From the NCBI GenBank assembly GCA_041688155.1, contig JBDNIW010000012.1, positions 202 through 64,201 of the forward strand: a stretch of DNA of 64,000 bases, in the 5' to 3' direction. Source of the DNA: Minisyncoccota bacterium (GTDB taxonomy: Bacteria > Patescibacteriota > Minisyncoccia > Phycocordibacterales > UBA918). A program made the translations under genes and the position numbers. This document shows positions 4,395 through 61,731 of this stretch, in pieces. Each line of letters begins with the position of its first letter. The first letter of the stretch is position 1. Under the pieces are notes generated by a model. It saw only the letters and a program-made list of their open reading frames with translations, was not told where the DNA came from and did not search any database.

Positions 4395-4464
4395 ATAGAT
4401 ACTTTTAAAATAGTAGTCTACTTCATTCAAAAAATATTGTTTGGACAGGAAAAGCGAATTTACT

Positions 4465-6026: not shown

Positions 6027-7219
6027 ATTAGAGAGCGACGCTTATTGCCAATTACCGATAAAGAACCCACCGGCTGCACGTGTACTGTTGCAATAAGGTC
6101 ATCTTGAATTGCTTTACGCAGCGAATAGTCTTTTGCTAGATACAACTTATTTAGCACATGTTCAGACAACAGGTTTGCACCACCACAGCGCGTGACACTA
6201 TCTTGCAATATTTCCAGTCGAAAATTAATATCATTACCTGTTCCAGACTCAACGTGGAGTTGGTATTCATCGGCTTTGAGGCTTGCTGCAGCGCAGCACT
6301 CGTCAAGGGTGCCTGCTCGTAATTCGAAGCCAGCTACTCTAACCACGTCCACCCCATTTCGTCCGTTGAGTTCAAGTATAGGCATTTGGGTTGACTCATC
6401 TCTACCTGAGATCGAAAAATAATCTCCTGTGCGGTATCTAATGAGTGGAAAAGCGGGATTACTATCGTATGTTATGACGAGTTCATCGTCAATTAACTCT
6501 GTAGCAATAAGTGCACTCTGATTAGGAACAAACCCAGTTTGATTGTTTGTAATCATGTCTTGAGTTGGACCTAGTATAAATTGACCAACCTCTGCTGATG
6601 CATACATGTTTATGATTTTTGCAAAAGGGTAGTGCGATCGAAGTTGCTTCATGATGGTATCATTACTCAACTCGGAAGCTACCACAAGTAGTTTAATGTT
6701 TGCTGTTGAGCATTGTGTTGCAAACCGTAATGCAATAGTTGGTGTAGCAAAAAGAGCATCGCAGTTGAATTTTTTTAGTAGCGCTGCACTGGTGGATAAA
6801 TTACTAATATCACCAAATACTGGCACAAGCCCAGAGTTTGACTGACGACACTGCTGGATGAAAGATGCACTAAAACTTTTGAGTAGTGGTTGATATAAGA
6901 TCAGGGCTCGATTGACAGGTAAATTAAAAGCAGGATTAAAATAGTAATCTTCGACTTGACCAAAAAAGAGTAACAAAGGATTTCCGCTTGAAGTTCCCGA
7001 CGTGTAAGCCGTGAACACAAGTTGATCGGCGGGGACATAACAACGTTCATCCGGTGAAGTCTTAGCAATTTCACTACGGGTCAGGAATGGTAAATCAGCG
7101 AGTGCTGCTATATCAGTGGTTAGATATTTGTTCCTGTAAAAATTGGAATATGTTGTGCTTGAGACTCGCCCAAGCAGAGCTCGCAGCCGTTCAGTATCGC
7201 AGTGCAAAAGCATTGTCAT
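6014..7219 (-). CDS. PaaK-like adenylate-forming enzyme (phenylacetate-CoA ligase / F390-synthetase family)
   Basis: TSGTSSGNP P-loop-like motif and YRTGD adenylation motif (LIRYRTGDYF). 401 aa. It overlaps the Lnt-like gene by 13 nt, so the two are probably co-transcribed. Confidence 0.6.
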   Translation of the reverse strand: MTMLLHCDTERLRALLGRVSSTTYSNFYRNKYLTTDIAALADLPFLTRSEIAKTSPDERCYVPADQLVFTAYTSGTSSGNPLLLFFGQVEDYYFNPAFNLPVNRALILYQPLLKSFSASFIQQCRQSNSGLVPVFGDISNLSTSAALLKKFNCDALFATPTIALRFATQCSTANIKLLVVASELSNDTIMKQLRSHYPFAKIINMYASAEVGQFILGPTQDMITNNQTGFVPNQSALIATELIDDELVITYDSNPAFPLIRYRTGDYFSISGRDESTQMPILELNGRNGVDVVRVAGFELRAGTLDECCAAASLKADEYQLHVESGTGNDINFRLEILQDSVTRCGGANLLSEHVLNKLYLAKDYSLRKAIQDDLIATVHVQPVGSLSVIGNKRRSLICTL

Positions 7220-7258
7220 ATTGTACCAAAATTAGCGTTATTTTGGTACAATAAAGGT

Positions 7259-7789
7259 ATGCAAACACTCTTGTTCGGTATTCTTATAACTGCAATCTGG
7301 ATTTTTATCTGGATTGATTTAGCTAGGTGCTCAGATTCAAACCGCAAGGCACTGCCAGAGAATACGAACATCAAAGTGGTGGGTGTTATTCTTCTGGTTG
7401 CTATTGCTTGTTTTTACACTGCGCTTTACTCAGTTTCATCTTATATATATCTCGCTCCTTTGTACGCACAATTTGTTTGCGTTGGATTACTCTTCTGCGG
7501 AGCCTATCTTGTTGTAGGGGCAAGAAGGCAAATGTCAGCACTCACGGCAAGAGAGGTTTTGTTTTCTGTGAATACAAAATATTCAGTCGGTGGCGTGTTT
7601 CAAAAATTTACCCACCCAATGTTTTTTGGTATCGCTATCATTTTGATTTCTAGCTGGTGTTTACTCCCAAATATTATACCGGGTGTACTTTTATTAATAT
7701 CACTGGCATTACTGTGCGTAAAAGCAGCGCTTGAGACAAGTGAACTTAGGAAACAATTGAATTTACGAGAACCAGGTATTGATCAGTAA
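7259..7789 (+). CDS. ICMT/PEMT-family membrane methyltransferase-like protein
   Basis: Polytopic membrane protein. The C-terminal motif YSVGGVFQKFTHPMFFG resembles the RHPxY.G motif of isoprenylcysteine carboxyl methyltransferases. The track ORF starts at 7202, but the likelier start is MQTLLFG. Confidence 0.5.
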   Translation: MQTLLFGILITAIWIFIWIDLARCSDSNRKALPENTNIKVVGVILLVAIACFYTALYSVSSYIYLAPLYAQFVCVGLLFCGAYLVVGARRQMSALTAREVLFSVNTKYSVGGVFQKFTHPMFFGIAIILISSWCLLPNIIPGVLLLISLALLCVKAALETSELRKQLNLREPGIDQ

Positions 7790-8537
7790 CTAGACGTGAC
7801 TGTTCGTTTGCTTGTAATGTAACAATATCGATTTCATCAAGTAAATCTTGATTAGGAATATTACCCGTAAGCGTTTGATCTAGTAAGTCCATAAGTTTAA
7901 TCACCAATTCAGAGTACTTAAGAGTTTCTGTTTCCAAGATGAATATCTGAGATTTTATCGTGTCAGCAACTATGTCAGAATTTCTGGCATACGTAGCTAG
8001 ATTTGTTGTGGCAAGATTAGTTGACGCTGCATACTCTCTGGACGCACTAACTTCAACTTGTGCATTATTTAATATTGCAAAAAAACCAACAAAATTTCCA
8101 GAAAGTGCTTTCTGCTGTACTAATTCCATTGTTGTCTGTACATCACTGAATAGCTTTTGGTTGAGAAGATCATTTTCTGTTGAGGCTACCTCTAAGAGGT
8201 TGACAAAATCCGGCGTTACCTGACTAGAAGCGGTGATGGTCAGCTGATTCACTGAGGATCGCGTGTTAGTCGTTATTCCTCCTTCTGGTCTGGTTGGAAA
8301 TTGTAGAGCATCTCTATCAGCTTGTGTGGGAACTGAGCCAAAAGTTGGTCTTTCGAGTACCGCATCCTCTAGCAGTTGTTCGAGTTGGGTGATACGGTTC
8401 TCCAGTTTTAAATTTGTTAACTCGACCTGCCCGCGATAAATAAATGTTTGTAGTGTGAACAAGAGTCCACTTATTAATATTCCAGCAGTAAATGCAGCAA
8501 TTATTTTTATCATCATATACTTGTAACTATACATCAT
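7746..8537 (-). CDS. hypothetical membrane-anchored coiled-coil protein
   Basis: N-terminal TM helix followed by a long low-complexity, coiled-coil-like region. No family recognised. Confidence 0.4.
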   Translation of the reverse strand: MMYSYKYMMIKIIAAFTAGILISGLLFTLQTFIYRGQVELTNLKLENRITQLEQLLEDAVLERPTFGSVPTQADRDALQFPTRPEGGITTNTRSSVNQLTITASSQVTPDFVNLLEVASTENDLLNQKLFSDVQTTMELVQQKALSGNFVGFFAILNNAQVEVSASREYAASTNLATTNLATYARNSDIVADTIKSQIFILETETLKYSELVIKLMDLLDQTLTGNIPNQDLLDEIDIVTLQANEQSRLVTDQYLVLVNSIVS

Positions 8538-8694
8538 TTTTTATTCCAGATACTAGTAATTAACAAATTGCCAATAAACACACGATTTAGTCGCGTATTA
8601 ATTTTGTTAATACGGAGATGGTATACTAAATTAGTCGATAGTTCGGTTAAAAGAATTCCAAAGTTTATGCAAAGGCATCTGATATAATTAAAAC

Positions 8695-9315
8695 ATGTTT
8701 TCACAAGTATCTAATAGTTTAAAAAAAAGTGTTGTTGTTGTTGTGATGGTCGCAATGCTTACTTTTTCAGTACCAAAAGAGTCGGAAGCCATTTTGTTGC
8801 TGCTGTTCGCACCGCTTACTATCGGTGCTACAGTTGCTCTCATTATTACTGAGATAGCAATTCTTTGTGCAGTAGGTGTGATTTGTGGAGGTGGGGGTGG
8901 GGGTGGCACGATAGGCGGAGGTCCAGGTAGTGCTTTTGTCGGTGATTCTTGTTCAGCTTCTAATTATTGCGGTCAAACCGGTGCTGGAACAGTTCAAAGT
9001 GATGGTTTTTGTACTGCATTACCGCCGCCAAATAGTGCGTGTACCAATGGATCGTTTCCAGATGATGCGCTAACAATAAACCCAGGTTTGGTAAGGATAG
9101 GTGATGATGTTGTAGTTAGTTATGATGTAGGTGTTTTTAACTATCCACCAAACTGTACTTTGAGTGGACCTGCCCCAATTGGGGTCATGCCTCTTACTAC
9201 ACAAACTGGCAGTTTGACAGTGACTGCATCAGCTGCGCACTTCTTTAGGCTTGAGTGTGGTACAACAAATGCGGAAGCAAAACTAGACTTGGTTGGTATT
9301 ATTCAAGAGATTTAA
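8695..9315 (+). CDS. hypothetical secreted/membrane protein with a Gly7 run and a Cys-rich ectodomain
   Basis: ATG start. N-terminal signal-like segment, then a TM helix, then GGGGGGG, then multiple Cys (CSASNYC, CTALPPPNSAC, ...). Confidence 0.45.
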   Translation: MFSQVSNSLKKSVVVVVMVAMLTFSVPKESEAILLLLFAPLTIGATVALIITEIAILCAVGVICGGGGGGGTIGGGPGSAFVGDSCSASNYCGQTGAGTVQSDGFCTALPPPNSACTNGSFPDDALTINPGLVRIGDDVVVSYDVGVFNYPPNCTLSGPAPIGVMPLTTQTGSLTVTASAAHFFRLECGTTNAEAKLDLVGIIQEI

Positions 9316-9336
9316 AAATTAATAAATCCAGATACA

Positions 9337-9840
9337 ATGAATAATGTCACAAACAATAACGTCTTTGCTTCATTTCGAGACAGCAAGACAAAAACACTTA
9401 AACTACGATTCTTGTTGGTGATTGTGTTTGGGTTCTTCTTCTATAGTGCTGGCATTTATATCTTACTTCGGGGGCTCTCAACGATTATGTTGGCTGAACA
9501 AGTAACCTTATTAAATTTTCTCCACTTATTTGCAACGGCGATACCGCCATTATTGATTGGATTCGGTTTACTAACTCTCAGGCATTGGTCAATATATGTA
9601 CTTGTTGCACACGTCACTCTGGCGGCACTTTCAGTACTTCCTTTATGGTACTTCGGTCTAAGTGAGTTGATTAGTAGTACCTTATCTAACAATTTGGTGA
9701 TTTTAGCTATTTTATTAGTCATGATTTCGCTTTCTTCGGAGTTGTACAAATCACGATACGGCATACTTCTCACAGTACTGTACGTATTGCTGCTGACTGT
9801 GACAAGTGGAACGCAGATATACTATCGATTGCAACTTTAA
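9337..9840 (+). CDS. hypothetical integral membrane protein (about 5 TM)
   Basis: Hydrophobic ORF that follows directly downstream of 8695..9315. Confidence 0.4.
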   Translation: MNNVTNNNVFASFRDSKTKTLKLRFLLVIVFGFFFYSAGIYILLRGLSTIMLAEQVTLLNFLHLFATAIPPLLIGFGLLTLRHWSIYVLVAHVTLAALSVLPLWYFGLSELISSTLSNNLVILAILLVMISLSSELYKSRYGILLTVLYVLLLTVTSGTQIYYRLQL

Positions 9841-9965
9841 AGTAGTTTTACCGGACAGTTTTTACCTTTGAAGCGTATTAAACAAGGTGTTACTTTATAA
9901 TATTGGATTAGTGCTAGTACTGATTTGATGATGTAACATTATATTATGTGTGCTATAAAGACAGA

Positions 9966-11495
9966 ATGAAACAAATAAGTTTAGGCAGTGATTTTACCTT
10001 TCAAGCTTTTATTGAAGCGGTTTTTTCATCTCCGGACTTAGATATTCCTTCGTTGCAGAGTGCCAACAAAACAGTGCAAGCTTCAGCTGAAGAAATTGTA
10101 TATGGCTGGAACACCGGTTTTGGACCGATGGCTCAAATCTATGTTGGTAAGCATGAACGGGTAAATCTTCAATACAATCTCGTCCGTAGTCATGCCTGCG
10201 GGGCAGGAAAACCCCTGTCAGATACATTGTGCCGAGCCATTTTGATTGCTCGACTGCAGACACTCTCCTTAGGATATTCAGCTGTAACAGAGCCTTTGCT
10301 GAGCGCTATGAAAAAGTTGGTAGTAAATCGTATACACCCGGTGGTGTATGAGCACGGTTCTGTTGGGGCGAGCGGAGATTTGGTACAGTTAGCGCACGTT
10401 GGCCTAGGACTCATTGGAGAAGGGGAGGTTTGGTACGAGAACGTTCTGATGCCTGCTGCCAAGGCACTTGAGGCGTGCGGACTAACTCCTTATGAACTTG
10501 GAAACCGTGATGGTTTAGCATTAATCAATGGGACAGCTGCGATGACAGCAATCGCAGCCATAAATATCAATCAAGCAGAGCAACTCTTTGAGCAGGCTAT
10601 CATCAATACGGCTTTAATTTATGATATATGCGAAGTACATCGAGATGTTTTTGATTCGCTTGTGGCACAAGTTCGTCCCCACCCAGGTCAGCGATACGTT
10701 ATTGATCGTTTGAATCATTATCTGCCGACCAGCTCCCATACCAGAGCTACTCCACTAATTAATTCAAAACAGATTAACGATTCAGAAACGTCACTTTTGT
10801 CCCATAATCCACAAGATATATATTCGTTACGTTGCGTTCCTCAAATACTTGGTCCAATACAAGACTCGATTCAGAGGGCTAAACAAACAGTTACAATTGA
10901 GCTCCAAAGTGTTACCGACAACCCAATTTTCAGTGCTAACCGTATTGTACACAATGGTAATTTTCACGGTGATTATGTTTCGTACGAAATGGATTGTTTA
11001 AAAATTGCGATAACGAAGCTGAGTTTATTGCTTGACCGACAAATGCATTTTTTGCTCCACGAACGAATCAACCAAAAATTCCCGCCATTTTTAAATGCCA
11101 ATACTCCAGGTCTAACTCTCGGACTCCAAGGATTACAGTTCGTTGCTACTTCAACAACAGCGGAAAATCAAACGATAAGTAATCCGATGAGTATTCACAG
11201 TATTCCAACCAATGGTGATAATCAAGATGTGGTTAGTATGGGTACCAATAGCGCTCTACTAGCTCACAAAGTTGTGAATAATACTTTTGAAATTTTAGCT
11301 GCCCACACAATTGCAGTAGTTCAGGCTACTAGGTTAAGCGGTAAGGGTGAATCTTTACCAAAAGAGTTATCCATGAAATACCAAATCGTAAACGAATTGA
11401 TTCCAGTGCTAGATAAAGATATGTCTCTACAGCCGGTTTTGGCAAAAGTGGGCCAAGATCTGCAGTCGTATCCACATACCAAAAAAACAAAATAA
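9966..11495 (+). CDS. aromatic amino-acid ammonia-lyase family enzyme (HAL/PAL/TAL; MIO prosthetic group)
   Basis: Ala-Ser-Gly MIO triad in GSVGASGDLVQLAHV and family-typical NTGFG. About 510 aa. No hutU, hutI or hutG neighbours. Confidence 0.8.
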   Translation: MKQISLGSDFTFQAFIEAVFSSPDLDIPSLQSANKTVQASAEEIVYGWNTGFGPMAQIYVGKHERVNLQYNLVRSHACGAGKPLSDTLCRAILIARLQTLSLGYSAVTEPLLSAMKKLVVNRIHPVVYEHGSVGASGDLVQLAHVGLGLIGEGEVWYENVLMPAAKALEACGLTPYELGNRDGLALINGTAAMTAIAAININQAEQLFEQAIINTALIYDICEVHRDVFDSLVAQVRPHPGQRYVIDRLNHYLPTSSHTRATPLINSKQINDSETSLLSHNPQDIYSLRCVPQILGPIQDSIQRAKQTVTIELQSVTDNPIFSANRIVHNGNFHGDYVSYEMDCLKIAITKLSLLLDRQMHFLLHERINQKFPPFLNANTPGLTLGLQGLQFVATSTTAENQTISNPMSIHSIPTNGDNQDVVSMGTNSALLAHKVVNNTFEILAAHTIAVVQATRLSGKGESLPKELSMKYQIVNELIPVLDKDMSLQPVLAKVGQDLQSYPHTKKTK

Positions 11496-11521
11496 TTGTA
11501 CTATATGGTATTATTCATTGT

Positions 11522-11734
11522 ATGAGCACGACATCAATAGTATTTACAAAAGTTTCTGCGGCACTGATTCTGTTACTAGCAATAGCAGCTTTCTTGGCTA
11601 CGTACGTCACCCAGGTTATAGGTGCACAGATGGCTAAAGAGTCAGGTTTTAGAGTAACAGAAAGTGTTAGCTGTACCCCAGGTCAATCAACTGAAAATGA
11701 TGCACATTTTTCAGGTTGTAGTTCTCTGATCTAG
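11522..11734 (+). CDS. hypothetical small membrane protein (70 aa)
   Basis: Single TM segment. Lies immediately downstream of the lyase. Confidence 0.3.
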   Translation: MSTTSIVFTKVSAALILLLAIAAFLATYVTQVIGAQMAKESGFRVTESVSCTPGQSTENDAHFSGCSSLI

Positions 11735-11751
11735 TTGCGCACAAGTGGGCG

Positions 11752-11827
11752 ATTGAAACTATTGAAACTATTGAAACTATTGAAACTATTGAAACTATTG
11801 AAACTATTGAAACTCAATAGTTTCAAT
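11752..11827. repeat. seven direct copies of ATTGAAACT, then an inverted copy (caatAGTTTCAAT) that can hairpin with the last unit
   Basis: Perfect 9-bp tandem repeat visible in the sequence. It lies inside an ORF that would encode (LKL)n. Confidence 0.9.
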
Positions 11828-11930
11828 CAAATGATAGAGAGAATTAATCTGGCTGATATTTTTACTAAAAATGAACATTGGATCCAATTAATATCAATCG
11901 AGCGACGCGCCGAACAGCTAAGTACATAGA

Positions 11931-11959
11931 AAAACCACCGGGTTTATCCGGTGGGTTTT
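11931..11959. terminator. hairpin aaaaccaccgg-gtttat-ccggtgggtttt (bidirectional terminator-like)
   Basis: Perfect inverted repeat with flanking A and T runs at the distal end of the island, before rpsN. Confidence 0.65.
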
Positions 11960-12139
11960 CTATTGCAATTCCACTTATTTCGCGTATAGTACTGCGCAAG
12001 ACGGGTTGCTAGTCCTATCTCTTTTGGTTGCTAGTACCGTTGTAGGCTTGGTGTTGACCTCGGTTGCACATAGCCGAATTTATTAAGGAGCCAGTCGTGA
12101 CATCTTCACGAAACTACTCCACTTTAGTCTAAGAAAAAA

Positions 12140-12325
12140 ATGGCACGAAAAGCACTTTTGATCCGCGCAGCGCGGACACCAAAGTTCAAATCGCGTGTGG
12201 TCCGACGTTGCGCCCTGTGTGGTCGTGGCAAGGGGTACATGCGTGACTTCGATATGTGTCGGATCTGTTTCCGAGAACAAGCACACGAAGGTCATATTCC
12301 AGGCGTAACCAAATCATCATGGTAG
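12140..12325 (+). CDS. rpsN: 30S ribosomal protein S14, type Z (zinc-binding)
   Basis: 61 aa with a CxxC...CxxC zinc-binding pattern: MARKALLIRAARTPKFKSRVVRRCALCGR...CRICFRE. Confidence 0.93.
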   Translation: MARKALLIRAARTPKFKSRVVRRCALCGRGKGYMRDFDMCRICFREQAHEGHIPGVTKSSW

Positions 12326-12714
12326 GCGACGTCGTGGGGGATTTTATCATCCGCCTCAAAAACGCCGGAGCAGTGAACAAGGGAACGATTTCGATCCCGT
12401 ATTCAAAACTCCGACACGCGGTAGCAGATAAGTTAGTAGACGCTGGATATCTAGTGTCAGTAACCACTGCCGGTGTTAAGGTACAAGAAAAAACTCTCGA
12501 AGTGACACTGAGGTATGAGGACGGCACACACATCATCCGTGGTGTAAAACGCATCTCAAAACCAGGTCGACGTCTCTATACGAAAGTTACGGATATTCAT
12601 CCGGTTAAATTTGGACAAGGGCACATGATCCTTTCTACCCCCGCAGGCATCGTCACTGGCGAAGAAGCGCGGGCCCAGAAAGTTGGTGGTGAGCAATTGT
12701 TTATCATTTGGTAA
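12319..12714 (+). CDS. rpsH: 30S ribosomal protein S8
   Basis: Translation MVGDVVGDFIIRLKNAGAV... matches S8. The gene overlaps the end of rpsN. Confidence 0.9.
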   Translation: MVGDVVGDFIIRLKNAGAVNKGTISIPYSKLRHAVADKLVDAGYLVSVTTAGVKVQEKTLEVTLRYEDGTHIIRGVKRISKPGRRLYTKVTDIHPVKFGQGHMILSTPAGIVTGEEARAQKVGGEQLFIIW

Positions 12715-12715
12715 T

Positions 12716-13252
12716 ATGTCACGATTAGGAAAAATTCCAGTCGTCATCCCAGCGGGAGTAGAGGTTACTCTCACTGACGGCGTACTGAAGACAAAAGGAC
12801 CCAAAGCCACCCTCGAGCGAGCTGTTCGAGAAGCCAACGTGTCGTTTGTAATCGAAGGAAACGAAATAACGCTCGCACCAGTGAACCAAACCAAAGAGTC
12901 AAGAGCGCTTTGGGGTACCTATGCCGCGCACGCGCGCAACATGATCACCGGAGTGACAGAGGGGTTCACTCGGGTACTTGAGATTGAAGGAGTGGGGTAT
13001 CGAGCGACCATCGAAGGTAATACAATCGTACTGAACGTCGGATTCTCACACCAAGTCAAGCTAGAAATCCCAGCTGGGATTACGGCTGAAGTGGTCAAGA
13101 GCACCATCACTCTAGCTGGGTCTGATAAAGACGCACTGGGGCAGTTCGCTGCCAACCTGCGCAAAGTCAAACCACCAGAACCATACAAAGGCAAAGGAAT
13201 CAGGTACCAAGGCGAACACATTATCCGCAAGCAAGGTAAGAAGGCTGTCTAG
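12716..13252 (+). CDS. rplF: 50S ribosomal protein L6
   Basis: Translation MSRLGKIPVVIPAGVEVTL... matches L6. Confidence 0.92.
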   Translation: MSRLGKIPVVIPAGVEVTLTDGVLKTKGPKATLERAVREANVSFVIEGNEITLAPVNQTKESRALWGTYAAHARNMITGVTEGFTRVLEIEGVGYRATIEGNTIVLNVGFSHQVKLEIPAGITAEVVKSTITLAGSDKDALGQFAANLRKVKPPEPYKGKGIRYQGEHIIRKQGKKAV

Positions 13253-13273
13253 TCTCGCCGTAATTATATTTGT

Positions 13274-13621
13274 ATGAAAACAATCATCAGCAAAGCGCAA
13301 TCACGTGCCAAACGACACAACCGCCTGCGACACAAAATCACTGGAACAGCAGCCCGACCACGACTCGCTGTGTTCAAGAGCAATAAGTTCGTATACGCGC
13401 AATTGATCAACGATGAAACTGGCACCACATTGGCTGCAGTTGACTCGCGGAAAGAGAAAGGGACGTCACTCGAGGCTGCTCAAGTTATCGGCACCGCCAT
13501 CGCCAAACAAGCGCTCGATGCTAAGGTAACCGAAGTTGTGTTCGACCGCGGAGGGTTCCAATACATCGGGATAGTGGCTGCAGTAGCAGACGCCGCCCGA
13601 GCCGGAGGATTAAAGTTCTAG
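13274..13621 (+). CDS. rplR: 50S ribosomal protein L18
   Basis: 115 aa. The sequence ...RLAVFKSNKFVYAQLIND... matches L18. Confidence 0.92.
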   Translation: MKTIISKAQSRAKRHNRLRHKITGTAARPRLAVFKSNKFVYAQLINDETGTTLAAVDSRKEKGTSLEAAQVIGTAIAKQALDAKVTEVVFDRGGFQYIGIVAAVADAARAGGLKF

Positions 13622-13652: not shown

Positions 13653-14345
13653 ATGTCTGAAGATAAACAGCAGGAAGCTACAACTGACAAAAAGTCAGAC
13701 GCTGTCGTGGAGAAAACTCCCACAGCAGTTGCGCCGGAAGCGGCCGCAACCACAGATGCACCCGCTGGCGAAACGCCCGTCCTGACAGGCGGTGATCGTC
13801 CGCGACGAGGTGGAGCGCGTCCCCGAGGGGCCAATGATCGCCGCGCTGGCGCCCAAGGTAGTCGCCGCGGGGGTGGTAACCGCCGGAGCGGTCGCCCAGA
13901 GCGAGTGAAACCGGAATTCGACCAGAAAATCATCAGTATTCGCCGAGTGACCCGTGTGATGGCGGGAGGTCGTCGGTTCTCATTCTCAGTATCAATGGTG
14001 ATTGGAGACAAAAAAGGTAAAGTTGGCGTTGGTATCGGCAAGGCTGGTGATACCCAACTAGCGATTGAAAAGGCTGTCCGAGACGCGAAGAAAAACATGT
14101 TGCAGGTCTCAATGGATGCTGAAGGCCGCATCCCACACGATGTGCATGTGAAATACGCTTCAAGCGAAGTTATGATCATGCCAGCACCTGGGCGAGGGCT
14201 CGTGGCTGGATCATCAGTGCGTACCGTACTGGAGCTAGCTGGAGTCAAAGACGTGACGGCAAAACTCTTTTCTCGAAGTAAGAACAAACTTAACAATGCA
14301 CGCGCTGCTGTCGAGGCGCTCAAGGAGCTAAAAATGAAAGCGTAA
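13653..14345 (+). CDS. rpsE: 30S ribosomal protein S5 with an ~85-aa Arg/Gly-rich N-terminal extension
   Basis: The S5 core IISIRRVTRVMAGGRRFSFS...GKVGVGIGKAGD follows a low-complexity RGG-rich extension. Confidence 0.92.
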   Translation: MSEDKQQEATTDKKSDAVVEKTPTAVAPEAAATTDAPAGETPVLTGGDRPRRGGARPRGANDRRAGAQGSRRGGGNRRSGRPERVKPEFDQKIISIRRVTRVMAGGRRFSFSVSMVIGDKKGKVGVGIGKAGDTQLAIEKAVRDAKKNMLQVSMDAEGRIPHDVHVKYASSEVMIMPAPGRGLVAGSSVRTVLELAGVKDVTAKLFSRSKNKLNNARAAVEALKELKMKA

Positions 14346-37920: not shown

Positions 37921-38262
37921 CCTCTGTCTGCCCACTAGAACTTGAAACTTACAGTTTCAGTACAGGTTATCGACAGTTTATTTCGAAAACTCATAAACCT
38001 GTCTGATAACCTTCTCAAATAGTTTCCCAAACTATTTGAGCCTAGAACCACGAAGGTATATAGATATTCAAATTCTGAACATCTATACAGTCCTTCGCTC
38101 CAGATCTCAAATACTCGTAAACTCGTGCTTGAATCTTACTCTAGGACTGTAAGCTTCGCGCTCTACTTGGGCAAGTGAGGAGGTGTAGGAAAGTTTACTT
38201 TCGTATAGCCTCCGAACGCAGGACAAGCAAGCTTTGCTTACCGATTGAGCTACTTGGTTTGT
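37921..38262 (-). pseudogene. tRNA-like gene copy split into four ordered pieces (D-arm, D/anticodon, anticodon/T, T-loop/acceptor) by three 75-95-nt inserts; paralog of the adjacent tRNA
   Basis: Pieces ccaagtagctcaatcgg / tagagcgcgaagctta / tataccttcgtggttctagg / tttcaagttctagtgggcaga match the intact tRNA at 38290-38362. They are colinear and on the same strand. Confidence 0.6.
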
Positions 38263-41580: not shown

Positions 41581-42729
41581 ATGCCTGCCAAAAAACCTGA
41601 CTACAATCGCCTTGCTCTTGAACTACACAAAAAACTCAAAGGTAAGATTGCTATTGCACCCAAAGGGTCGCTCAAAACCAAACTCGATTGGAGTACGATG
41701 TACTCGCCAGGGGTCGGGGCGGTGTCGACTCATTTGGCCAAGCATCCCCAAGACGCGCGCGAGTACACCATGAAGCGCAACATGGTCGCGGTCATCAGTG
41801 ACGGGTCAGCCATCTTGGGTCTTGGCAACCTTGGTCCCATTGCGGCGCTGCCGGTGATGGAAGGCAAGTGTGCGATTTTTAAGGCGATGGCAAACGTTGA
41901 TGCGTTCCCGATTGTGCTTAATGTGCAGGAACCAGAGCAGATTATTGCCGCGGTTAAAGCCATCGCACCTGGGTTTGGTGGTATCAACCTCGAAGATATC
42001 TCGGCTCCCAAATGCTTTGAGATTGAAGAGCGACTCAAAGCAGAGCTCGATATTCCTGTTATGCACGACGACCAGCACGGGACGGCCATCGTCGTACTAG
42101 CCGGGCTAATCAACGCAGCTAAAGTGGTCAAAAAACGGCTGGAGGATATGAACGTAGTTGTGGTCGGTGCCGGCGCGGCTGGCCGGGCAGTGACTTTGCT
42201 ACTGGTGCAGGCCGGAATCAAACACATCATCGTCACCGACAGCCAAGGGGCAATAGCAGAAGGTCGCGCGGGTATGGCTAGCTACAAACGCGAGTTGGCC
42301 AAGCTCACCAACCGAGAAAAAGTCACCGGTGACTTGATGCAGGTCATCAGTGGAGCAGACGTCGTTATCGGTGTATCTGGTCCCGGCACGATAGCGTCAG
42401 CGCACATCGAGCGGATGGCACCAAACGCCATCGTGTTTGCCTTAGCGAACCCCATCCCCGAAATCATGCCCGAAGACGCCAAACGAGCTGGTGCCCTGAT
42501 CTGCGCGACTGGTCGCTCAGACATGCCAAACCAAATCAACAACTCCCTCGCGTTCCCCGGGATTTTCCGTGGCGCGCTCGACCGTGGTGTGCGAGACATC
42601 ACCGACGAGATGAAGCTAGCCGCCGCGAAGAAAATAGCCAGCCTAGTCAAAAAACCAACCGCAGACAAAATCGTCCCCACCAACAACGAACCAGGTTTGG
42701 TCAAAGCGGTGGCTAGCGTGATCAAATAG
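41581..42729 (+). CDS. NAD(P)-dependent malic enzyme (short form)
   Basis: Malic-enzyme motifs (VISDGSAILGLGN, GAGAAGRAV). Start taken at MPAKKPDY. Confidence 0.85.
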   Translation: MPAKKPDYNRLALELHKKLKGKIAIAPKGSLKTKLDWSTMYSPGVGAVSTHLAKHPQDAREYTMKRNMVAVISDGSAILGLGNLGPIAALPVMEGKCAIFKAMANVDAFPIVLNVQEPEQIIAAVKAIAPGFGGINLEDISAPKCFEIEERLKAELDIPVMHDDQHGTAIVVLAGLINAAKVVKKRLEDMNVVVVGAGAAGRAVTLLLVQAGIKHIIVTDSQGAIAEGRAGMASYKRELAKLTNREKVTGDLMQVISGADVVIGVSGPGTIASAHIERMAPNAIVFALANPIPEIMPEDAKRAGALICATGRSDMPNQINNSLAFPGIFRGALDRGVRDITDEMKLAAAKKIASLVKKPTADKIVPTNNEPGLVKAVASVIK

Positions 42730-42768
42730 TTTGAAGCTAACACTTTTTCTGCTATTCTAGCCAGCAAC

Positions 42769-42854
42769 GGAGACGTGTCAGAGTGGTCTATCGTGCTTCC
42801 TTGCTAAGGAAGTGGGGTTTACGCCCCCGGAGGTTCGAATCCTCTCGTCTCCGC
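42769..42854 (+). tRNA. tRNA-Ser (anticodon GCU), type II with a long variable arm
   Basis: Anticodon arm CUUCC-UUGCUAA-GGAAG, variable hairpin UGGGG...CCCC, T-loop GGUUCGAAUCC, G73 discriminator. Confidence 0.85.
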
Positions 42855-42898
42855 AAATTAAAAAGACCCAACAGGGTCTTTTTAATTTGCGGAGACGA
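42847..42898. terminator. 52-bp perfect palindrome (24-bp arms) that includes the last 8 nt of the tRNA-Ser and an inverted copy of them
   Basis: cgtctccgcaaattaaaaagaccc-aaca-gggtctttttaatttgcggagacg. Confidence 0.7.
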
Positions 42899-42902
42899 AG
42901 CA

Positions 42903-43190
42903 ACAGTCCGGGGGACTGTTGCGTGAGGATTCGAAAAGCTTTTGCGTCAGATTGGGAGCGGAGCGAACTAATCTGTCCAAAAGGTATACTGCTTGTGTAA
43001 CAAGCGAATCCTCTCGTCAATTACGTCACCCGGTCCGGGGGACTGTTGCGTGAGGATTCGAAAAGCTTTTGCGTCAGATTGGGACCGAAGGGAACCAATC
43101 TGTCCAAAAGGTATACTGCTTGTGTAACCAGAGAATTCTCTCGTCAATTACGTCACCCAGTCCGGGGGACTGTTGCGTGAGGATTCGAAA
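42903..43190. repeat. 2.3 tandem copies of a ~127-bp MITE-like unit. Each has a 5' hairpin (caacagtccgggggactgttg), a conserved core hairpin (CTTTTG.GTCAGATTGG...CCAATCTGTCCAAAAGG) and a 3' copy of the tRNA-Ser 3' end (GAATCCTCTCGTC)
   Basis: Direct repeats are visible. The same core family occurs again at 44470-44760. Confidence 0.85.
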
Positions 43191-43277
43191 ATCTTGCTTT
43201 GTTTAAGATGTGTAGTAGTATTTTTGATGGATGTTGCCTAAATCGCAACACAACCTTCATGGAAGAGGAGATGCACC

Positions 43278-43670
43278 ATGAAAACGCGTACCCACTTTGT
43301 TATTCCAGCTTTGGCTGTCCTGGCACTTTCTGCTTGTGGCGGCGGAGGCGAACCTTTTGATCAATCTCGGTCTGCCTTAGACCAGCCACTGACTGTCGCT
43401 ACCATGGATATTACGTCGGTATCGTCCTCCGGTGAAGAGATGGTAGGTACCATATGGGCCTACATAAACTTTACCAGCGAGTTTCATGTTTCTTCTGACG
43501 CTGGCGTTGTGTGTGAAGGCAACACGAACGCCCATGGCGTTGGCGCGATGAATTGCTCCGACGGTCGTATGTACCCAATCGCGATCGAGGGCTATGGTTC
43601 CTTCAATGGTTCCTATGTTGAAGAATACCCAGGTGAAACAGTTCAAATTACCTGGAACCGACGGACCTGA
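43278..43670 (+). CDS. hypothetical lipoprotein
   Basis: Signal peptide with lipobox LSAC-G. Confidence 0.5.
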   Translation: MKTRTHFVIPALAVLALSACGGGGEPFDQSRSALDQPLTVATMDITSVSSSGEEMVGTIWAYINFTSEFHVSSDAGVVCEGNTNAHGVGAMNCSDGRMYPIAIEGYGSFNGSYVEEYPGETVQITWNRRT

Positions 43671-43750
43671 GTTTGAACGAAAACTGACCACTAACCACTA
43701 ACCACTAGCTATGTGTCTGGCCGTCAGTATAAAAAGTAAGAAAGCCCGCG

Positions 43751-43776
43751 GTGTGGGCTTTTTTTGTGCTCCACTG
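43751..43776 (+). terminator. hairpin aaagcccgcggtgtgggcttttttt
   Basis: GC stem followed by a T7 run after the lipoprotein gene. Confidence 0.65.
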
Positions 43777-44218
43777 AGTAGGTTGATGCAGTAGATGAGA
43801 CATGAAGCTGGTGTAAAAATTTAGGATAAATCTGGGATATAAAAAGTATACTAATACTATCCAGATACTCAGCGAATCTTCTCGTTTTTACCACCAAAAA
43901 ACACTCTTTGCTATACTCAATCTATGAATAAATTCTTTCATCACGAATCAGCTGTAAGGGATGGAAATCTGGCGGTACAGCACGTCGACTCCAGATCTGT
44001 TGTAGCTGCAACTCAGACATTTCTTGCATCATGTGGACTAGCACTTAAGGACTGCGTCTTGATTGAGTGTCAACATGCAGACAATATCACTCACGTAACA
44101 GCCAAAGAGAAATCACGTACTATTCCAACGTAAGCGTTGATTACTAACCAATCTGGTCCCAGTAACAAGTGAATCCTCTCGTCGCAAGTAACACTTTATG
44201 ATAAAGTACTACGCACCA

Positions 44219-44315
44219 CACGGAGAGTTGGCTGAGTGGATAAAATAGTCTGGGAGACTGTTTTATCCGACCAAAGGGAGGCGACGAACTCGTTCGACCC
44301 GAAGCCAACTCTCCG
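44219..44315 (+). pseudogene. degenerate tRNA-like element sharing the first 18 nt of the downstream tRNA, with an 11-bp acceptor-like stem (GGAGAGTTGGC/GCCAACTCTCC)
   Basis: The 5' 18 nt are identical to the tRNA at 44338. The internal arms do not form a canonical cloverleaf. Confidence 0.45.
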
Positions 44316-44337
44316 TGGATGAGTAAAGCGAATAGAT

Positions 44338-44424
44338 GGAGAGTTGGCTGAGTGGTCGAAAGCAGCAGTTTACTAAACTGCCGAGCCTTTGCGGGCTCCA
44401 AGGGTTCGAATCCCTTACTCTCCG
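44338..44424 (+). tRNA. type-II (Ser-like, G73) tRNA with an atypical anticodon loop UUACUAA (anticodon ACU?)
   Basis: Acceptor GGAGAGU/ACUCUCC, 3-bp D-stem, anticodon stem GCAGU/ACUGC, variable hairpin GAGCC/GGCTC, T-loop GGGUUCGAAUCCC. Confidence 0.6.
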
Positions 44425-44432
44425 CAAATACC

Positions 44433-44830
44433 AAAACCTAAAGCATGTCTTTAGGTTTTGTTGTATTTTGCGAGAGAGTAAGGGATTCGAAAAGCTTTTG
44501 AGACAGATTGGGACCGAAGGGAATCAATCTGTCCAAAAGGTGTACTGAACTCGTAGAGTTCGAATCCCTTACTCTCCGCCAAAACAAAAAGTACCCGCAA
44601 GGGTGCATTTTTGTAAGCGGACAGTAAAGTAACAGTTCGGGGAACTGTTACGTGGGATTCGAAAAGCTTTTGAGTCAGATTGGGACCAAAGGGAACCAAT
44701 CTGTCCAAAAGGTATACTGCTCGTGTAACGAGAGAAATTCCCTTACTCTCCGCAAATACCAAAACCTAAAGCATGTCTTTAGGTTTTGTTGTATTTTGTG
44801 CGAGAGTGAGGGGTTGGAAAAGAGCTGGAG
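44433..44830. repeat. nest of tRNA-linked repeats: two MITE-like units with the same core as 42903-43190, bounded by inverted and direct copies of this tRNA's 3' end, plus a duplicated terminator hairpin
   Basis: cgagagagtaagggattcgaa (inverted 3' end) ... core ... gttcgaatcccttactctccgcc (direct 3' end). The second unit ends the same way. The terminator AAAACCTAAAGCATGTCTTTAGGTTTT occurs at 44433 and again at 44761. Confidence 0.8.
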
Positions 44831-44929
44831 TGTGTGTCAAAATGAATACTATTCATTTCACATAGCACTGGTTGGGTTATATCTAGGTCCAGCTACCGTT
44901 AGTTCTCAAACACAGCTATAGCTAAACTA

Positions 44930-59838: not shown

Positions 59839-61731
59839 TTGTATAATAAATCAATAATATTAATTTTCACTATGTCTTTCACTAAAAATCTGTCGCTTGC
59901 TTTTATTATTATTCCTTTCGCATTGTTTTTTAGTTTTGCTCAAATTTCATCTGCGCAAACCGCCCCGTCTACACCCACAGATCTGACTCCTACCCCCGGC
60001 AGTACACAAGTCGACCTCACGTGGACTGCGCCAGCAGACGGTGGATCCGCTATTACCGACTACACAGTCGAGTATCAATCATCCAATGGAGTTATCTATG
60101 TTACAAATGCTGCCAACAATACCATCCTCAAATCTACCGACGGTGGAACAACCTGGACTGACACTACTAACGGTGGAGCGTTTAATTCTCCACGAGATCT
60201 CACCACTGATAGTGCAAACGCTATCTATGTTACAAATCTTAGCAACAACACCATCCTCAAATCCACCGACGGTGGAACAACCTGGACTGACGCTACTAAC
60301 GGTGGAGCGTTTAATAATCCAATAGGTATCACTACCGATAGTGCAAATAACATTTATGTTGCAAATGCTGACAACAACACCATCCTCAAATCCATCGACG
60401 GCGGAGCAAGTTGGACTGACACTACCAACGCTGGAGCGTTTAATGGTCCACGAGGCATCACCGTAGATAGTGCAAATAACATCTATGTTGCAAATGCTGA
60501 CAACAACACCATCCTCAAATCCATCGACGGCGGAGCAAGTTGGACTGACACCACCAACGGTGGAGTGTTTAGTACTCCAGCAAGCATCACCACTGATAGT
60601 GCAAACGCTATCTATGTTACAAATGCTGGCAACAACACCATCCTCAAATCCACCGATGGTGGAGCCAGTTGGACTGACACTACTAACGGTGGAGCGTTTA
60701 ATTCTCCAATAGGTATCACCACCGATAGTGCAAATAATATCTTTGTTGCAAATTTTAACAACAACACCATCCTCAAATCTACCGATGGTGGAGCGACCTG
60801 GACTAACACTACCAACGGTGGAGTGTTTGATAATCCAGCAGGCATGGCAGCTTCGAAGTGGCTCACGTTCTCTGATGGTACATCGACCACAGTTTCAGCA
60901 ACCGTTACAGGTCTCTCCAACGGCACTTCATACGATTTCCGAGTCAGAGCTATCAATGCCGTTGGTACTGGATTGCCGTCTGGTGTGGTAAGTTCGATTC
61001 CTGATATGGCACCTTCATTACTCTCATACACGTCTCCTAATGTCTATACAGTAGATGCGGTAATCACACCTCTTTCACCAACGGTGACAGGAACAGCGGT
61101 AAGTTATGTAGTTTCCCCAGCTCTTCCTACTGGGCTTTCTCTAGATGCAACCACAGGAATAATCAGTGGAACACCAACAGCTATTACAGGAGTGGCTACA
61201 TACACCGTCACTGTAACTAATATGGTTGGTAATACTACCTTTGACTTGGATATAACCGTTACTAATGCGCCTCGTAACAACAGCAGTTCTGGTGGATTTA
61301 GATATGGGTGTAAAGATACAAATGCAAGTAATTATAATGACCGTTCAAGACACAAGCAAAGTTTATGTGAGTATGAGCAAAAAATTGTAGATACAAATAC
61401 AAACTCTACCGATATTCTGGAGCAAATACGTGAACTACAGCAACTACTAGCCGAACTCCAAGCACAAGCCGAAGCAGTCGTTACAACAACTGCCGCAATC
61501 CCAGCAAACTGCAGCTTCACCCGTGACCTAACCACCGGTAGTAGTGGGCAAGACGTCACCCGCTTGCAGCAGTACCTCACCACCACCGGTGACTACACGT
61601 TCCCCGAAGGACCTACTGGCTACTTTGGATCAGTCACCGAACAAGCCGTGCAAAGCTGGCAGGCACGCAGCGGAATCCTACCAGCTGCCGGCTACTTTGG
61701 CCCAATCTCGCGCAGTGCTGTTACACAGTAG
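59839..61731 (+). CDS. secreted multi-domain protein: signal peptide; an Fn3 domain split by seven ~42-aa YVTN/NHL-type beta-propeller repeats; a putative Ig-like domain; a coiled coil; a C-terminal peptidoglycan-binding (PG_binding_1-like) domain
   Basis: Fn3 halves TPTDLTPTPGSTQVDLTWTAP...TDYTVEYQ and WLTFSDG...YDFRVRAINAVG. Repeats IYVTNAxNNTILKSTDGGxTWTD. The C-terminus DVTRLQQYLTTTGDY...GYFGP. Confidence 0.7.
   Translation: MYNKSIILIFTMSFTKNLSLAFIIIPFALFFSFAQISSAQTAPSTPTDLTPTPGSTQVDLTWTAPADGGSAITDYTVEYQSSNGVIYVTNAANNTILKSTDGGTTWTDTTNGGAFNSPRDLTTDSANAIYVTNLSNNTILKSTDGGTTWTDATNGGAFNNPIGITTDSANNIYVANADNNTILKSIDGGASWTDTTNAGAFNGPRGITVDSANNIYVANADNNTILKSIDGGASWTDTTNGGVFSTPASITTDSANAIYVTNAGNNTILKSTDGGASWTDTTNGGAFNSPIGITTDSANNIFVANFNNNTILKSTDGGATWTNTTNGGVFDNPAGMAASKWLTFSDGTSTTVSATVTGLSNGTSYDFRVRAINAVGTGLPSGVVSSIPDMAPSLLSYTSPNVYTVDAVITPLSPTVTGTAVSYVVSPALPTGLSLDATTGIISGTPTAITGVATYTVTVTNMVGNTTFDLDITVTNAPRNNSSSGGFRYGCKDTNASNYNDRSRHKQSLCEYEQKIVDTNTNSTDILEQIRELQQLLAELQAQAEAVVTTTAAIPANCSFTRDLTTGSSGQDVTRLQQYLTTTGDYTFPEGPTGYFGSVTEQAVQSWQARSGILPAAGYFGPISRSAVTQ
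60080..60840. repeat. seven tandem ~126-bp DNA repeats (encoding the beta-propeller blades)
   Basis: Near-identical nucleotide units, visible as repeating out-of-frame ORFs in the track. Confidence 0.85.

Follow-up and report, generated by a model that had tools for sequence, protein, structure and literature searches.

A 64,000-nt stretch of a Minisyncoccota bacterium genome (assembly GCA_041688155.1, contig JBDNIW010000012.1, positions 202 to 64,201 of the forward strand; hereafter the window) contains, behind two tRNA-Ser genes, repeated copies of a structured unit whose ends match the 3' end of the tRNA gene immediately upstream. These units belong to a large, previously unannotated family of structured elements of ~100-140 nt, which is specific to Patescibacteria and found mainly in Paceibacteria/Parcubacteria-type genomes. 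We tentatively suggest that the unit is a non-autonomous, structure-dependent mobile or duplicative element, framed at each new site by the sequence of its target tRNA, and the probability that we attach to this explanation is roughly 0.42.

Units behind the two tRNA-Ser genes

The general layout of a unit-bearing locus comprises the tRNA (up to nt 54-74), a terminator hairpin, an inverse copy of nt 74-54 (left arm) that is often split by a hairpin termed H, a core, and a direct copy of nt 57-74 (right arm). The two arms pair with each other in a closing helix, P0, and the core contains the helices P1, P2 and P3. Five core copies are present in the window, four of them behind the two tRNA-Ser genes and the fifth in a pseudo-copy of a tRNA-Ile; all three tRNA loci of the window carry the element. 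The features of the two tRNA-Ser loci are as follows, with scores of our covariance model R1 and with minimum free energy (MFE) folds.

42769-42854 (+): intact tRNA-Ser(GCU) (ARAGORN; Rfam tRNA, 43.8 bits)
42845-42898 (+): perfect palindrome with 25-nt arms (42845-42869 and 42874-42898) and a 4-nt loop (inverted-repeat pair, 100% complementary)
42889-43018 (+): unit 1 (R1, 97 bits, E=1.5e-24; the MFE fold gives every helix, z=-6.2)
42889-42898: unit 1, left arm a, GCGGAGACGA
42900-42922: unit 1, hairpin H, GCAACAGTCC-GGG-GGACTGTTGC, perfect 10-bp stem
42925-42932: unit 1, left arm b, GAGGATTC
42933-42938: unit 1, first junction strand, GAAAAG
42939-42983: unit 1, P1/P2, CTTTTG...CAAAAG around CAGATTGG...CTAATCTG
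42984-42991: unit 1, second junction strand, GTATACTG
42992-43004: unit 1, P3, CTTGT-GTA-ACAAG
43006-43018: unit 1, right arm, GAATCCTCTCGTC
43019-43145 (+): unit 2, tandem copy (Tandem Repeats Finder; R1, 87.6 bits; alignment)
43146-43191 (+): left part of unit 3, broken after GATTCGAAAA (alignment)
43192-44144 (+): cargo of ~950 bp in place of the middle of unit 3 (listing of open reading frames, ORFs)
44145-44183 (+): 3' remnant of unit 3, with TAACCAATCTG, a degraded P3 and the right arm GAATCCTCTCGTC (alignment)
44221-44316 (+): structured element derived from tRNA-Ser(ACU), 5' of that tRNA (fold z=-7.0)
44338-44425 (+): intact tRNA-Ser with anticodon ACU (ARAGORN; Rfam tRNA, 57.9 bits)
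44432-44469 (+): terminator module CAAAACCTAAAG-CATGT-CTTTAGGTTTTG and T-run (terminator scan)
44470-44579 (+): unit 2a, without hairpin H (R1, 102.7 bits; fold z=-9.6)
44617-44753 (+): unit 2b (R1, 100.4 bits; fold z=-6.4)
44760-44825 (+): second terminator module, then a degenerate left arm GCGAGAGTGAGGGGTTGGAAAAGAGC (terminator scan)

The initial annotation, made from the letters of the window, had described tRNA-Ser(GCU) followed by a palindrome and by 2.3 tandem units of ~127 bp. This arrangement was reproduced by ARAGORN, an inverted-repeat search and Tandem Repeats Finder, the last of which placed a 127-bp unit, repeated 2.3 times with 93% matches, at 42904-43195. The palindrome is perfect, as had been stated, and its arms are 25 nt long around a 4-nt loop rather than 24 bp. 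It takes in the final 8-10 nt of the tRNA and leads from the tRNA 3' end through a terminator-like hairpin of bidirectional look into an inverted copy of the tRNA 3' end; its second arm ends with GCGGAGACGA, which is the inverted complement of the acceptor 3' strand and also left arm a of unit 1. The template for the arms of the units at this locus is nt ~54-74 of tRNA-Ser(GCU). An inverted T-loop-like copy had been reported for each unit, and indeed GTGAGGATTCGAA is present in every unit and is 93% complementary to TTCGAATCCTCTCG of the tRNA.

Some details of that description had to be revised. First, a leading hairpin had been ascribed to every unit; it is perfect over 10 bp in unit 1, and in units 2 and 3 its 5' strand is replaced, leaving only ~5-6 bp. 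Second, the two helices proposed for the core (CTTTTG/CAAAAG and CAGATTGG/CCAATCTG) are present, and a third helix, P3, had been missed. Third, the direct copy of the tRNA 3' end, GAATCCTCTCGTC, does end the units, with one mismatch in unit 2 (GAATTCTCTCGTC), and unit 3 is cut at ~43191, its 3' remnant lying beyond the cargo. The cargo contains an ORF at 43278-43670, whose product starts with a lipoprotein-like signal sequence, and a second ORF at 43924-44133; neither gave a Pfam match. The syntenic locus L117 (unit-bearing loci of other contigs carry L numbers) is without the ~950-bp segment.

The recurrence of the core at the next tRNA gene, with ends that fit that tRNA instead, also held: behind 44338-44425 the ends read GAGAGTAAGGGATTCGAA ... 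TTCGAATCCCTTACTCTCCG and match tRNA-Ser(ACU), which serves units 2a and 2b as template for their arms. Unit 2a consists of a left arm (GCGAGAGAGTAAGGGATTC, 44470-44488), the core with P3 as GAACTC-GTA-GAGTTC (44547-44561), and a right arm (GAATCCCTTACTCTCCGC, 44562-44579). Unit 2b consists of left arm a, hairpin H (GTAACAGTTC-GGG-GAACTGTTAC, 44629-44651), the core, and a right arm ending in CCCTTACTCTCCGC. The terminator module ahead of unit 2a is near-identical in L031, L052, L072 and L121, where it stands behind other tRNAs, and the region 44760-44825 is the decayed start of one more unit.

The 96-nt element at 44221-44316 combines nt 1-18 of the tRNA, two hairpins (one of 15 bp, one small) and an inverted copy of nt 1-12, and as such is a 5'-side mirror of the units on the tRNA 3' side. 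In its L122 homologue (11351-11445) the hairpin differs in sequence and keeps its pairing, as read from the two sequences. As for tRNA-Ser(ACU) itself, a tRNA-Ser with A34 is unusual among bacteria. It was found in L117 (10531-10618), L121 (8648-8735), L122 (11453-11540) and L123 (8773-8860 and 11260-11347), and in at least five relatives it is always downstream of tRNA-Ser(GCU). The more distant L052 has a tRNA with the same acceptor stem and T-arm and the anticodon GCU.

Chance can be excluded for the core in the window, because a 37-nt core pattern gave three matches in the 64 kb and none was expected from 100 shuffles. Conserved blocks of 17 and 15 nt mark all four units behind the tRNA-Ser genes and occur nowhere else in the 64 kb.

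Fold and covariation

The core is modelled as a three-way junction composed of a purine-rich GAAAAG strand, a long hairpin (P1-P2), a G-URUACUG strand, and a P3 of 5-6 bp with a GUA loop. MFE folds of units 1, 2a and 2b reproduced this anatomy (z=-6.2, -9.6 and -6.4, respectively). When pairing was examined in an alignment guided by, and hence fitted to, the model, 92.1% of the cells were paired, compared with 69.8% in shuffles and at most 55% when the partners were slid. In the same alignment, double-change cells numbered 661 versus 184 in shuffles (0 of 500 shuffles as high), changes on both sides were seen in 25 of the 26 helix pairs, and the covariation score was 0.529, compared with 0.145 in shuffles and at most 0.137 with slid partners. 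The best-supported helix is P3, which is paired in 99% of cases with all four Watson-Crick types. An alignment made with MAFFT only gave the same pattern already in P3 and outer P2. Compensatory changes in the helices, the general mark of a structured non-coding RNA, are thus present on the model-fitted alignment.

Across deep lineages, a conservation of at least 90% was also seen at several unpaired nucleotides that the search pattern had not forced (URUAC-G, the loop GUA and the closing GA). Hairpin H shows the opposite behavior, since its sequence differs and its pairing is kept (GCAACAGTCC in unit 1, GTAACAGTTC in unit 2b, GTATCAGTTT in L117 and GTAATAATCT in L122); it has 10 bp, often a GGG loop, and often splits the left arm at the boundary of acceptor and T-stem. 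When read on the tRNA-sense strand, G.U pairs outnumber A.C pairs by 150 to 46 with a bias in every helix, indicating that this is the strand that folds, and only 1 of ~168 copies is inverted relative to its tRNA. On this model, selection appears to act on the fold of the tRNA-sense strand and not on its sequence, and the folding form could be a transcript or single-stranded DNA at a replication fork. The GAAAAG and GUAUACUG strands recall loop B of the hairpin ribozyme and a loop-E motif; an equivalent of the essential C25 is absent.

Family size and distribution

In order to estimate the size of the family, we scanned one genome per species (185,579 species) with the pattern TCGAAAAGCTTTTG-N25-45-CAAAAGG. 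The scan revealed at least 116 stretches, and among the matches listed 99 were true units and 17 were chance matches inside genes of unrelated bacteria. These 99 units come from roughly 70 assemblies, as counted by contig names, nearly all of them Patescibacteria; the assembly labels include Paceibacteria/Parcubacteria, Nomura-, Kaiser-, Adler- and Vogelbacteria, Minisyncoccia and 'Saccharibacteria'. The malic enzyme encoded in the window likewise has its nearest named homologues in Paceibacteria, Nomurabacteria and Kaiserbacteria. Typical units were also seen in bins labelled 'Acidimicrobiales' (L025, L031, L064, L072, L094), 'Patiriisocius' (L045, L093, L102, L111) and 'Azotimanducaceae' (L062, L073). 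Several contigs come from each such bin, their tRNA genes resemble those of Patescibacteria loci, and the contigs are probably mis-binned or mislabelled.

We then built covariance model R1 from 92 units, with the structure set by hand. The model found 128 copies in the first 100 loci, 28 in the remaining loci (one viral-collection contig included), 7 in four syntenic relatives and 5 in the window, giving ~168 copies, and it recovered variants in which P1 is changed on both strands (e.g. GGTTATC/GATAACC). The initial annotation had reasoned that a core confined to two loci would point to simple local duplication, and that a match to a known RNA family would undo its proposal; these copy numbers dispose of the first, and Rfam offered nothing for the second. 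At gathering score, Rfam placed no family on the units of the window and 14 loci and reported only tRNAs, a tmRNA and one unrelated LOOT RNA, and a permissive search (E up to 10) over 42700-44900 returned both real tRNAs and chance-level microRNA-like hairpin matches to the palindrome only. The LOOT RNA (RF03000, 56 bits) lies at 4313-4434 (-) of L117, a contig syntenic with the window. L117 was also the one true match of the scan of a viral collection, and it is a cellular-looking fragment. We found no published description of the element by full-text literature searching.

Link between the arms and the adjacent tRNA

When the positions of 133 copies (128 and the 5 of the window) were compared with tRNA genes of the same strand, 64 copies lay within 100 nt downstream and 86 within 500 nt downstream of one. 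The core family uses 16 tRNA identities. Among 108 tRNAs in unit-bearing loci, 74 have a unit within 300 nt, a proportion biased upward in that the loci were chosen for holding a unit.

The ends of the units follow the tRNA at each locus. For the 86 units within ~600 nt downstream of a same-strand tRNA, the right arm agreed with its own tRNA at 12.6 of 16 positions and with other tRNAs at 8.4 of 16, and 41 of these units, compared with 6 of ~1,600 controls, reached at least 14 of 16. For the left arm, agreement with the inverted acceptor 3' strand came to 7.8 of 11 positions, compared with 6.5 of 11 in controls. The locus-specific, tRNA-derived termini first noticed in the window are accordingly a general rule: the 3' strand of P0 is a direct copy, and the 5' strand an inverted copy, of nt ~54-74 of the tRNA immediately upstream.

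The left arm could in principle be the 5' acceptor strand of a tandem tRNA copy. At G.U positions of the tRNA, it complements the 3' strand in 5 of 6 clear cases, and the complement of nt 73-74 is found at the start of the arm; for these two reasons that candidate was ruled out in favor of an inverted copy of the 3' end. Beyond nt 74 it continues into the complement of the genomic flank and not of CCA, which is complemented only where it is encoded in the genome (L093).

In every case the upstream tRNA is intact, the core being lodged in a copy of that tRNA's 3' end, and the observations lend no support to targeting of the tRNA 3' end itself. In outline, the last ~20 nt of the tRNA appear as a direct, inverted and direct triple with a hairpin at each turn, first the terminator and then the core. 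The self-complementary hexamer TTCGAA forms the centre of the second turn. A terminator-like hairpin is present between the tRNA and the first unit in 41 of 61 cases (67%) and after the unit in 22 of 61 (36%), compared with a background of 13 of 305 (4%). Since 67% of the first units lie behind such a hairpin, simple co-transcription with the tRNA is argued against. A terminator module of 45 nt recurs behind tRNA-Ser, tRNA-Met and others in different genomes.

Variation between relatives

A check of relatives for presence or absence had been proposed at the outset, and among relatives with flanking proteins ~90% identical, presence, copy number and content of the units do differ. In relatives whose malic enzyme is ~90% identical, the order RecG, malic enzyme and tRNA-Ser(GCU) is kept, and the region downstream of this tRNA differs as follows.

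L117: one unit, with tRNA-Ser(ACU) directly next
L122: one unit and a partial one, with tRNA-Ser(ACU) following after ~4 kb of genes
L120: three units
L121: a core of another kind, enclosing an inverted type-I core
L123: units, and tRNA-Ser(ACU) in two copies
Window: 2.3 units and cargo, followed by tRNA-Ser(ACU) with two units

Behind tRNA-Ser(ACU), there are no units in L117 or L122 and two in the window. Tandem arrays were found in L013, L026, L031, L099 and L120, and cargo ORFs between tRNA and unit in L024, L039, L085 and L122. The blocks of hairpin and core are 80-84% identical across different tRNAs, and orthologous units at the same tRNA are 78-94% identical, a range that takes in the former values.

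The gap between malic enzyme and tRNA-Ser(GCU), 42729-42769 in the window, is variable too, and holds an ORF of 93, 331 or 152 amino acids in relatives (L120, L123 and L124). The 152-amino-acid ORF belongs to the strain whose malic enzyme is 99% identical (L124), and which has a different gene between malic enzyme and tRNA.

A tRNA-Ile pseudo-copy, nested modules and a second core family

The fifth core copy of the window resides in a locus on the other strand.

37926-38253 (-): 5'-truncated pseudo-copy of tRNA-Ile(UAU), nt 8-74 (sequence; R1 match)

The pseudo-copy lies 35 nt downstream of the intact gene (38362-38289, minus strand) and is interrupted in the D-loop (38238-38164), the anticodon loop (38149-38061) and the T-loop (38040-37944). 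The T-loop insertion is the core copy (R1, 37931-38052, minus strand, 44 bits, E=7e-10). The site of the pseudo-copy is empty in L122 and L123, and in L120 the pseudo-copy is shorter and its T-loop insert is a different one. The intact tRNA-Ile(UAU) is also present in L033, L120, L122 and L123, which implies that AUA is decoded without a lysidine-modified tRNA. The anticodon-loop insertion is 89 nt long with two hairpins, is below the length of a group I intron, and matched no Rfam family.

The D-loop insertion is a module of ~75 nt (AGCAAAGCTT...hairpin...CAAGTA) that always stands directly after GTA. It was also found in the GUA loop of P3 in units of six loci and in a tRNA-Asn pseudo-copy (L035, L066, L073, L107, L108, L109 and L051 besides the window), and it has the look of another very small element, one that inserts into loops.

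A second, unrelated core family (GCCGGAG ... GRCGGGGTCG ... CGACC) was found in at least six loci in the corresponding place, with tRNA-derived arms on either side. It can be written GCCGGAG ... GCGAGRCGGGGTCG - hairpin - CGACC with inverted and direct tRNA arms at its flanks, and examples are L014, L020, L024, L070, L090, L104 and L121 (7338-7571); in L121 it encloses the type-I core in reverse orientation. In addition, 60 of 138 tRNAs in unit-bearing loci are followed within 260 nt by a 13-nt copy of their own 3' arm with at most two mismatches. Based on the second core, the nested modules and these direct repeats, the frame built from the tRNA end is more general than any one core.

Comparison with known systems

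We compared the units with several kinds of known elements. First, integrative elements leave tRNA fragments at their attachment sites, attL and attR, and there too a partial copy of the tRNA 3' end stands behind an intact tRNA with foreign DNA in between at variable loci (PMC9897764). The direct repeats behind 60 of 138 tRNAs agree with this. The units differ from these repeats in being 100-200 bp long, in having an extra inverted copy and a covarying core, in using 16 tRNA identities where an island family would be limited to one or a few tRNA genes, and in having no linked integrase among 1,537 ORFs of ~100 loci and the scanned ORFs of the window.

Second, the units share with MITEs (miniature inverted-repeat transposable elements) as well as the palindrome-associated transposable elements (PATEs) of IS200/IS605 their small size, lack of coding capacity, multiple copies, hairpins, terminal inverted repeats and strand or orientation bias. 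Small modules nested in hairpin loops, such as the 75-nt module after GTA, are a further likeness. PATEs transpose as folded single-stranded DNA, and the units have hairpins and a recurrent junction at ...CGA or ...GTA. However, the inverted repeats of the units are not owned by the element and shared among copies; they are target sequence, are locus-specific and match the adjacent tRNA. The stems covary freely, unlike those of a protein-binding transposon end. The tRNA 3' end and the right arm form the only direct repeat; as the right arm belongs to the inverted repeats, no target-site duplication lies outside them, and no autonomous parent with a transposase was found in ~100 loci of 8 kb or among 40 scanned ORFs of the window. 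The label 'MITE-like', applied at first, finds no support in these observations.

Third, integron attC sites are imperfect palindromes of ~60-140 nt in which structure is kept over sequence, one folded strand is recognised, and gene cassettes collect at a fixed site. The units have no R/L boxes (RYYYAAC/GTTRRRY) and no linked IntI; conserved at their ends are GATTCGAAAAG and GA-ATCC. Some ORFs have no unit behind them, and many tRNAs serve as anchors in place of a single attI.

Fourth, tRNA-like RNAs such as the tRNA-like domain of tmRNA, the bacterial Y-RNA-like YrlA, mascRNA and viral tRNA-like structures have an acceptor-like stem formed by the 5' and 3' ends and an internal functional domain, and in the units H is at the D-arm position. 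In the units, by contrast, the T-loop is interrupted and paired, the discriminator is paired and the stem is locus-specific, and the Rfam models of tRNA, tmRNA and YrlA gave them no score.

Fifth, variants of the Mauriceville and Varkud retroplasmids of Neurospora picked up mitochondrial tRNA sequence and became inserted at the tRNA gene, a case in which a small element gains host tRNA sequence and lands beside that tRNA gene. Those captures include the CCA added after transcription and need the plasmid reverse transcriptase, whereas the arms of the units copy genomic flank and not CCA, and no reverse transcriptase is linked to them. A primer-binding site of a retroelement (an 18-nt complement including CCA) was ruled out as well, with the left arm complementing the genomic flank beyond nt 74.

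Finally, group I introns have been described in functional tRNA genes of Patescibacteria, where they are self-splicing and sit in the anticodon loop at position 35/36 (PMC13011429). They resemble the units as structured insertions associated with tRNA genes of the same phylum (PMC13011429). The units match no group I model, by which intron remnants were ruled out, and removal of the core restores no tRNA. The element is real and widespread, and apparently it has not been described before. It stands nearest to the tRNA-end repeats of integrating elements and to miniature elements based on hairpins, and fails the defining tests of both.

Proposed explanation and alternatives

What has been observed is the anatomy of the units, where they occur, their covariation, the agreement of their arms with the tRNA, and the polymorphism. 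The copying mechanism, which we infer from the direct, inverted and direct zig-zag, and the nature of the folded strand, RNA or DNA, go beyond these observations. We propose that the element would spread among tRNA loci at the DNA level, and that each new copy would be framed by sequence copied from the target tRNA end with the tRNA gene left intact. The copying might proceed by fold-back or strand-switch synthesis, or by recombination, at two palindromes, the terminator hairpin and the T-loop hexamer TTCGAA, and a small block (terminator, H and core) would acquire its frame from whichever tRNA end adjoins the landing site. The resulting direct repeats may then drive tandem amplification, partial deletion and trapping of cargo genes, which would explain the tandem arrays, partial units and trapped genes. 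Folding of the sense strand, be it as RNA or as the lagging-strand template, is in line with the G.U bias, with an orientation that is nearly fixed even though inverted repeats flank the core, and with the modules nested in loops.

A more specific form of this proposal is a self-framing 'dumbbell' of ~190 nt that needs no protein, in which a duplex of tRNA 3' ends is capped by the terminator hairpin and by the three-way-junction core. Such a dumbbell would multiply in the form of a folded single strand, either DNA or RNA, copy target tRNA ends for its closing stem, amplify head-to-tail, and make tRNA trailers landing pads for genes in the genome-reduced Patescibacteria. We regard this form as rather unlikely.

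Several points weigh against a mobile element. First, when 1,537 ORFs from ~100 unit-bearing 8-kb loci were clustered, no recurring transposase, integrase or reverse transcriptase emerged; the search for integrases near other copies that the initial annotation had recommended came out negative. Pfam on 40 window ORFs gave no recombinase either, and these genes are ordinary cellular ones or unannotated. Second, no excised or circular form was seen. Third, blocks at different tRNAs are never more than ~84% identical, which means that no very recent transposition was caught. Fourth, in the search for an empty and a filled site after tRNA-Ile, the intergenic DNA of the window and L122 was not alignable at the base level, and the 99%-identical L124 ends before the tRNA. 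Fifth, the fold-back step is a construction fitted to the palindromes, not an observed process. Finally, the conservation of at least 90% in the junction URUACUG, the GUA loop and the closing GA, together with covariation in every stem, is the signature of a functional RNA, and equally fits the explanation considered next.

That explanation, possible and yet somewhat unlikely in our judgment, is a family of functional small RNAs with an active three-way-junction core, for example a protein-binding or self-associating RNA. P0 would then mimic an acceptor/T-stem minihelix that is trimmed or stabilised by RNase P, RNase Z and the CCA-adding enzyme, as in tRNA-scaffolded RNAs, and the arms would resemble the neighbouring tRNA only through a local duplication of the tRNA end when the gene arose. 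The strong covariation, the conserved junction nucleotides, the excess of G.U over A.C on the tRNA-sense strand and the folding z-scores of -6 to -9.6 all speak for it, as does an orientation that is almost invariant although inverted repeats flank the core. It is also favored by the placement of hairpin H, often with its GGG loop, exactly at the D-arm position, by a terminator-like hairpin after 36% of the first units against 4% in the background, and by the retention of many copies in very small genomes. Expression is harder to account for, with 67% of the first units behind a terminator and no sigma-70-like promoter found by a simple scan ahead of the units of the window. The processing route fits poorly too: in the model the UUC of the T-loop is paired with GAA and leaves no T-loop for tRNA enzymes, the arms pair through the discriminator base and leave no free 3' tail, and the Rfam tRNA model does not score the units. 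Moreover, gain, loss, truncation and splitting among close relatives, with partial units common, would be unusual for an RNA that is needed, and two unrelated cores occupy the same frame. This explanation and that of a mobile element are not mutually exclusive.

Alternatively, the units might be scars of integrase islands, that is, the conserved att-proximal ends of small islands, most of which now lack cargo and integrase and act as hot spots of re-integration. The direct repeats of 13-21 nt of tRNA 3' end around inserted DNA, the cargo ORFs between tRNA and repeat in L024, L039, L085, L122 and the window, and the variable gene content behind the same tRNA among relatives are what such islands would produce, and tRNA gene fragments from integrating elements are recognised (PMC9897764). 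We nevertheless consider it improbable. No integrase was seen in ~100 8-kb loci or the scanned ORFs of the 64-kb window, and most elements measure only 100-200 bp. One family would have to use 16 tRNAs, and any target tRNA would be inactivated by a crossover in the shared T-loop, its 3' end then being foreign. Att sites have no use for an inverted third copy of the tRNA end or for a covarying core, and the single viral contig with a unit looks cellular and is syntenic with the window.

Very improbable is an intron-like insertion that would interrupt a functional tRNA gene in its T-loop and be removed from the transcript by splicing. The core does lie between T-loop halves (TTCGA / core / GAAT) and inside the T-loop of the tRNA-Ile pseudo-copy, and Patescibacteria are rich in tRNA introns (PMC13011429), but an intact tRNA is always upstream, the 5' arm complements the 3' strand and not the 5' half of a tRNA, and no group I intron model matches. 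When we removed the core in silico from 124 units at nine junctions each, ARAGORN called a junction-spanning tRNA in 0 of 124, and the candidate was rejected. Simple local tandem duplication at two loci, by which the 2.3 copies of the window could be explained as slippage between direct repeats, has a probability of virtually nil and is refuted by the core in about 99 loci of ~70 assemblies with 16 tRNA identities among the matches listed. The probability not taken up by a mobile element, a functional RNA or island scars falls to these two readings, both effectively refuted, and to further explanations.

Other features of the window

Apart from the units, the ribosomal-protein run of the window is split between rplE (3840-4394) and rpsE (13653-14345) by ~9 kb of unrelated genes (4545-13600), among them an aromatic amino-acid lyase (9948-11495). 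Two further repeats were recorded. A perfect tandem repeat of 9 bp x 7, ATTGAAACT, lies at 11752-11814, and a repeat of 129 bp x 5.8 (also scored as 258 and 387 bp) at 60093-60845 lies inside the ORF 59839-61731 and would encode a repeated protein segment.

Significance

The genomes of Patescibacteria are tiny and few mobile elements are annotated in them, and to our knowledge almost no small RNAs have been characterised in this phylum. If the element is a functional RNA, it would represent a large new class of tRNA-framed RNAs. On either reading a name and a model for the element are called for; current annotation misses it, and the tRNA-like fragments that it yields are able to confuse the calling of tRNA genes. 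If the element is mobile, it would spread in a way that keeps essential single-copy tRNA genes intact, with ends borrowed from the target and with hot spots of gene gain and loss behind the tRNAs, and would help account for strain-level variation in Patescibacteria.

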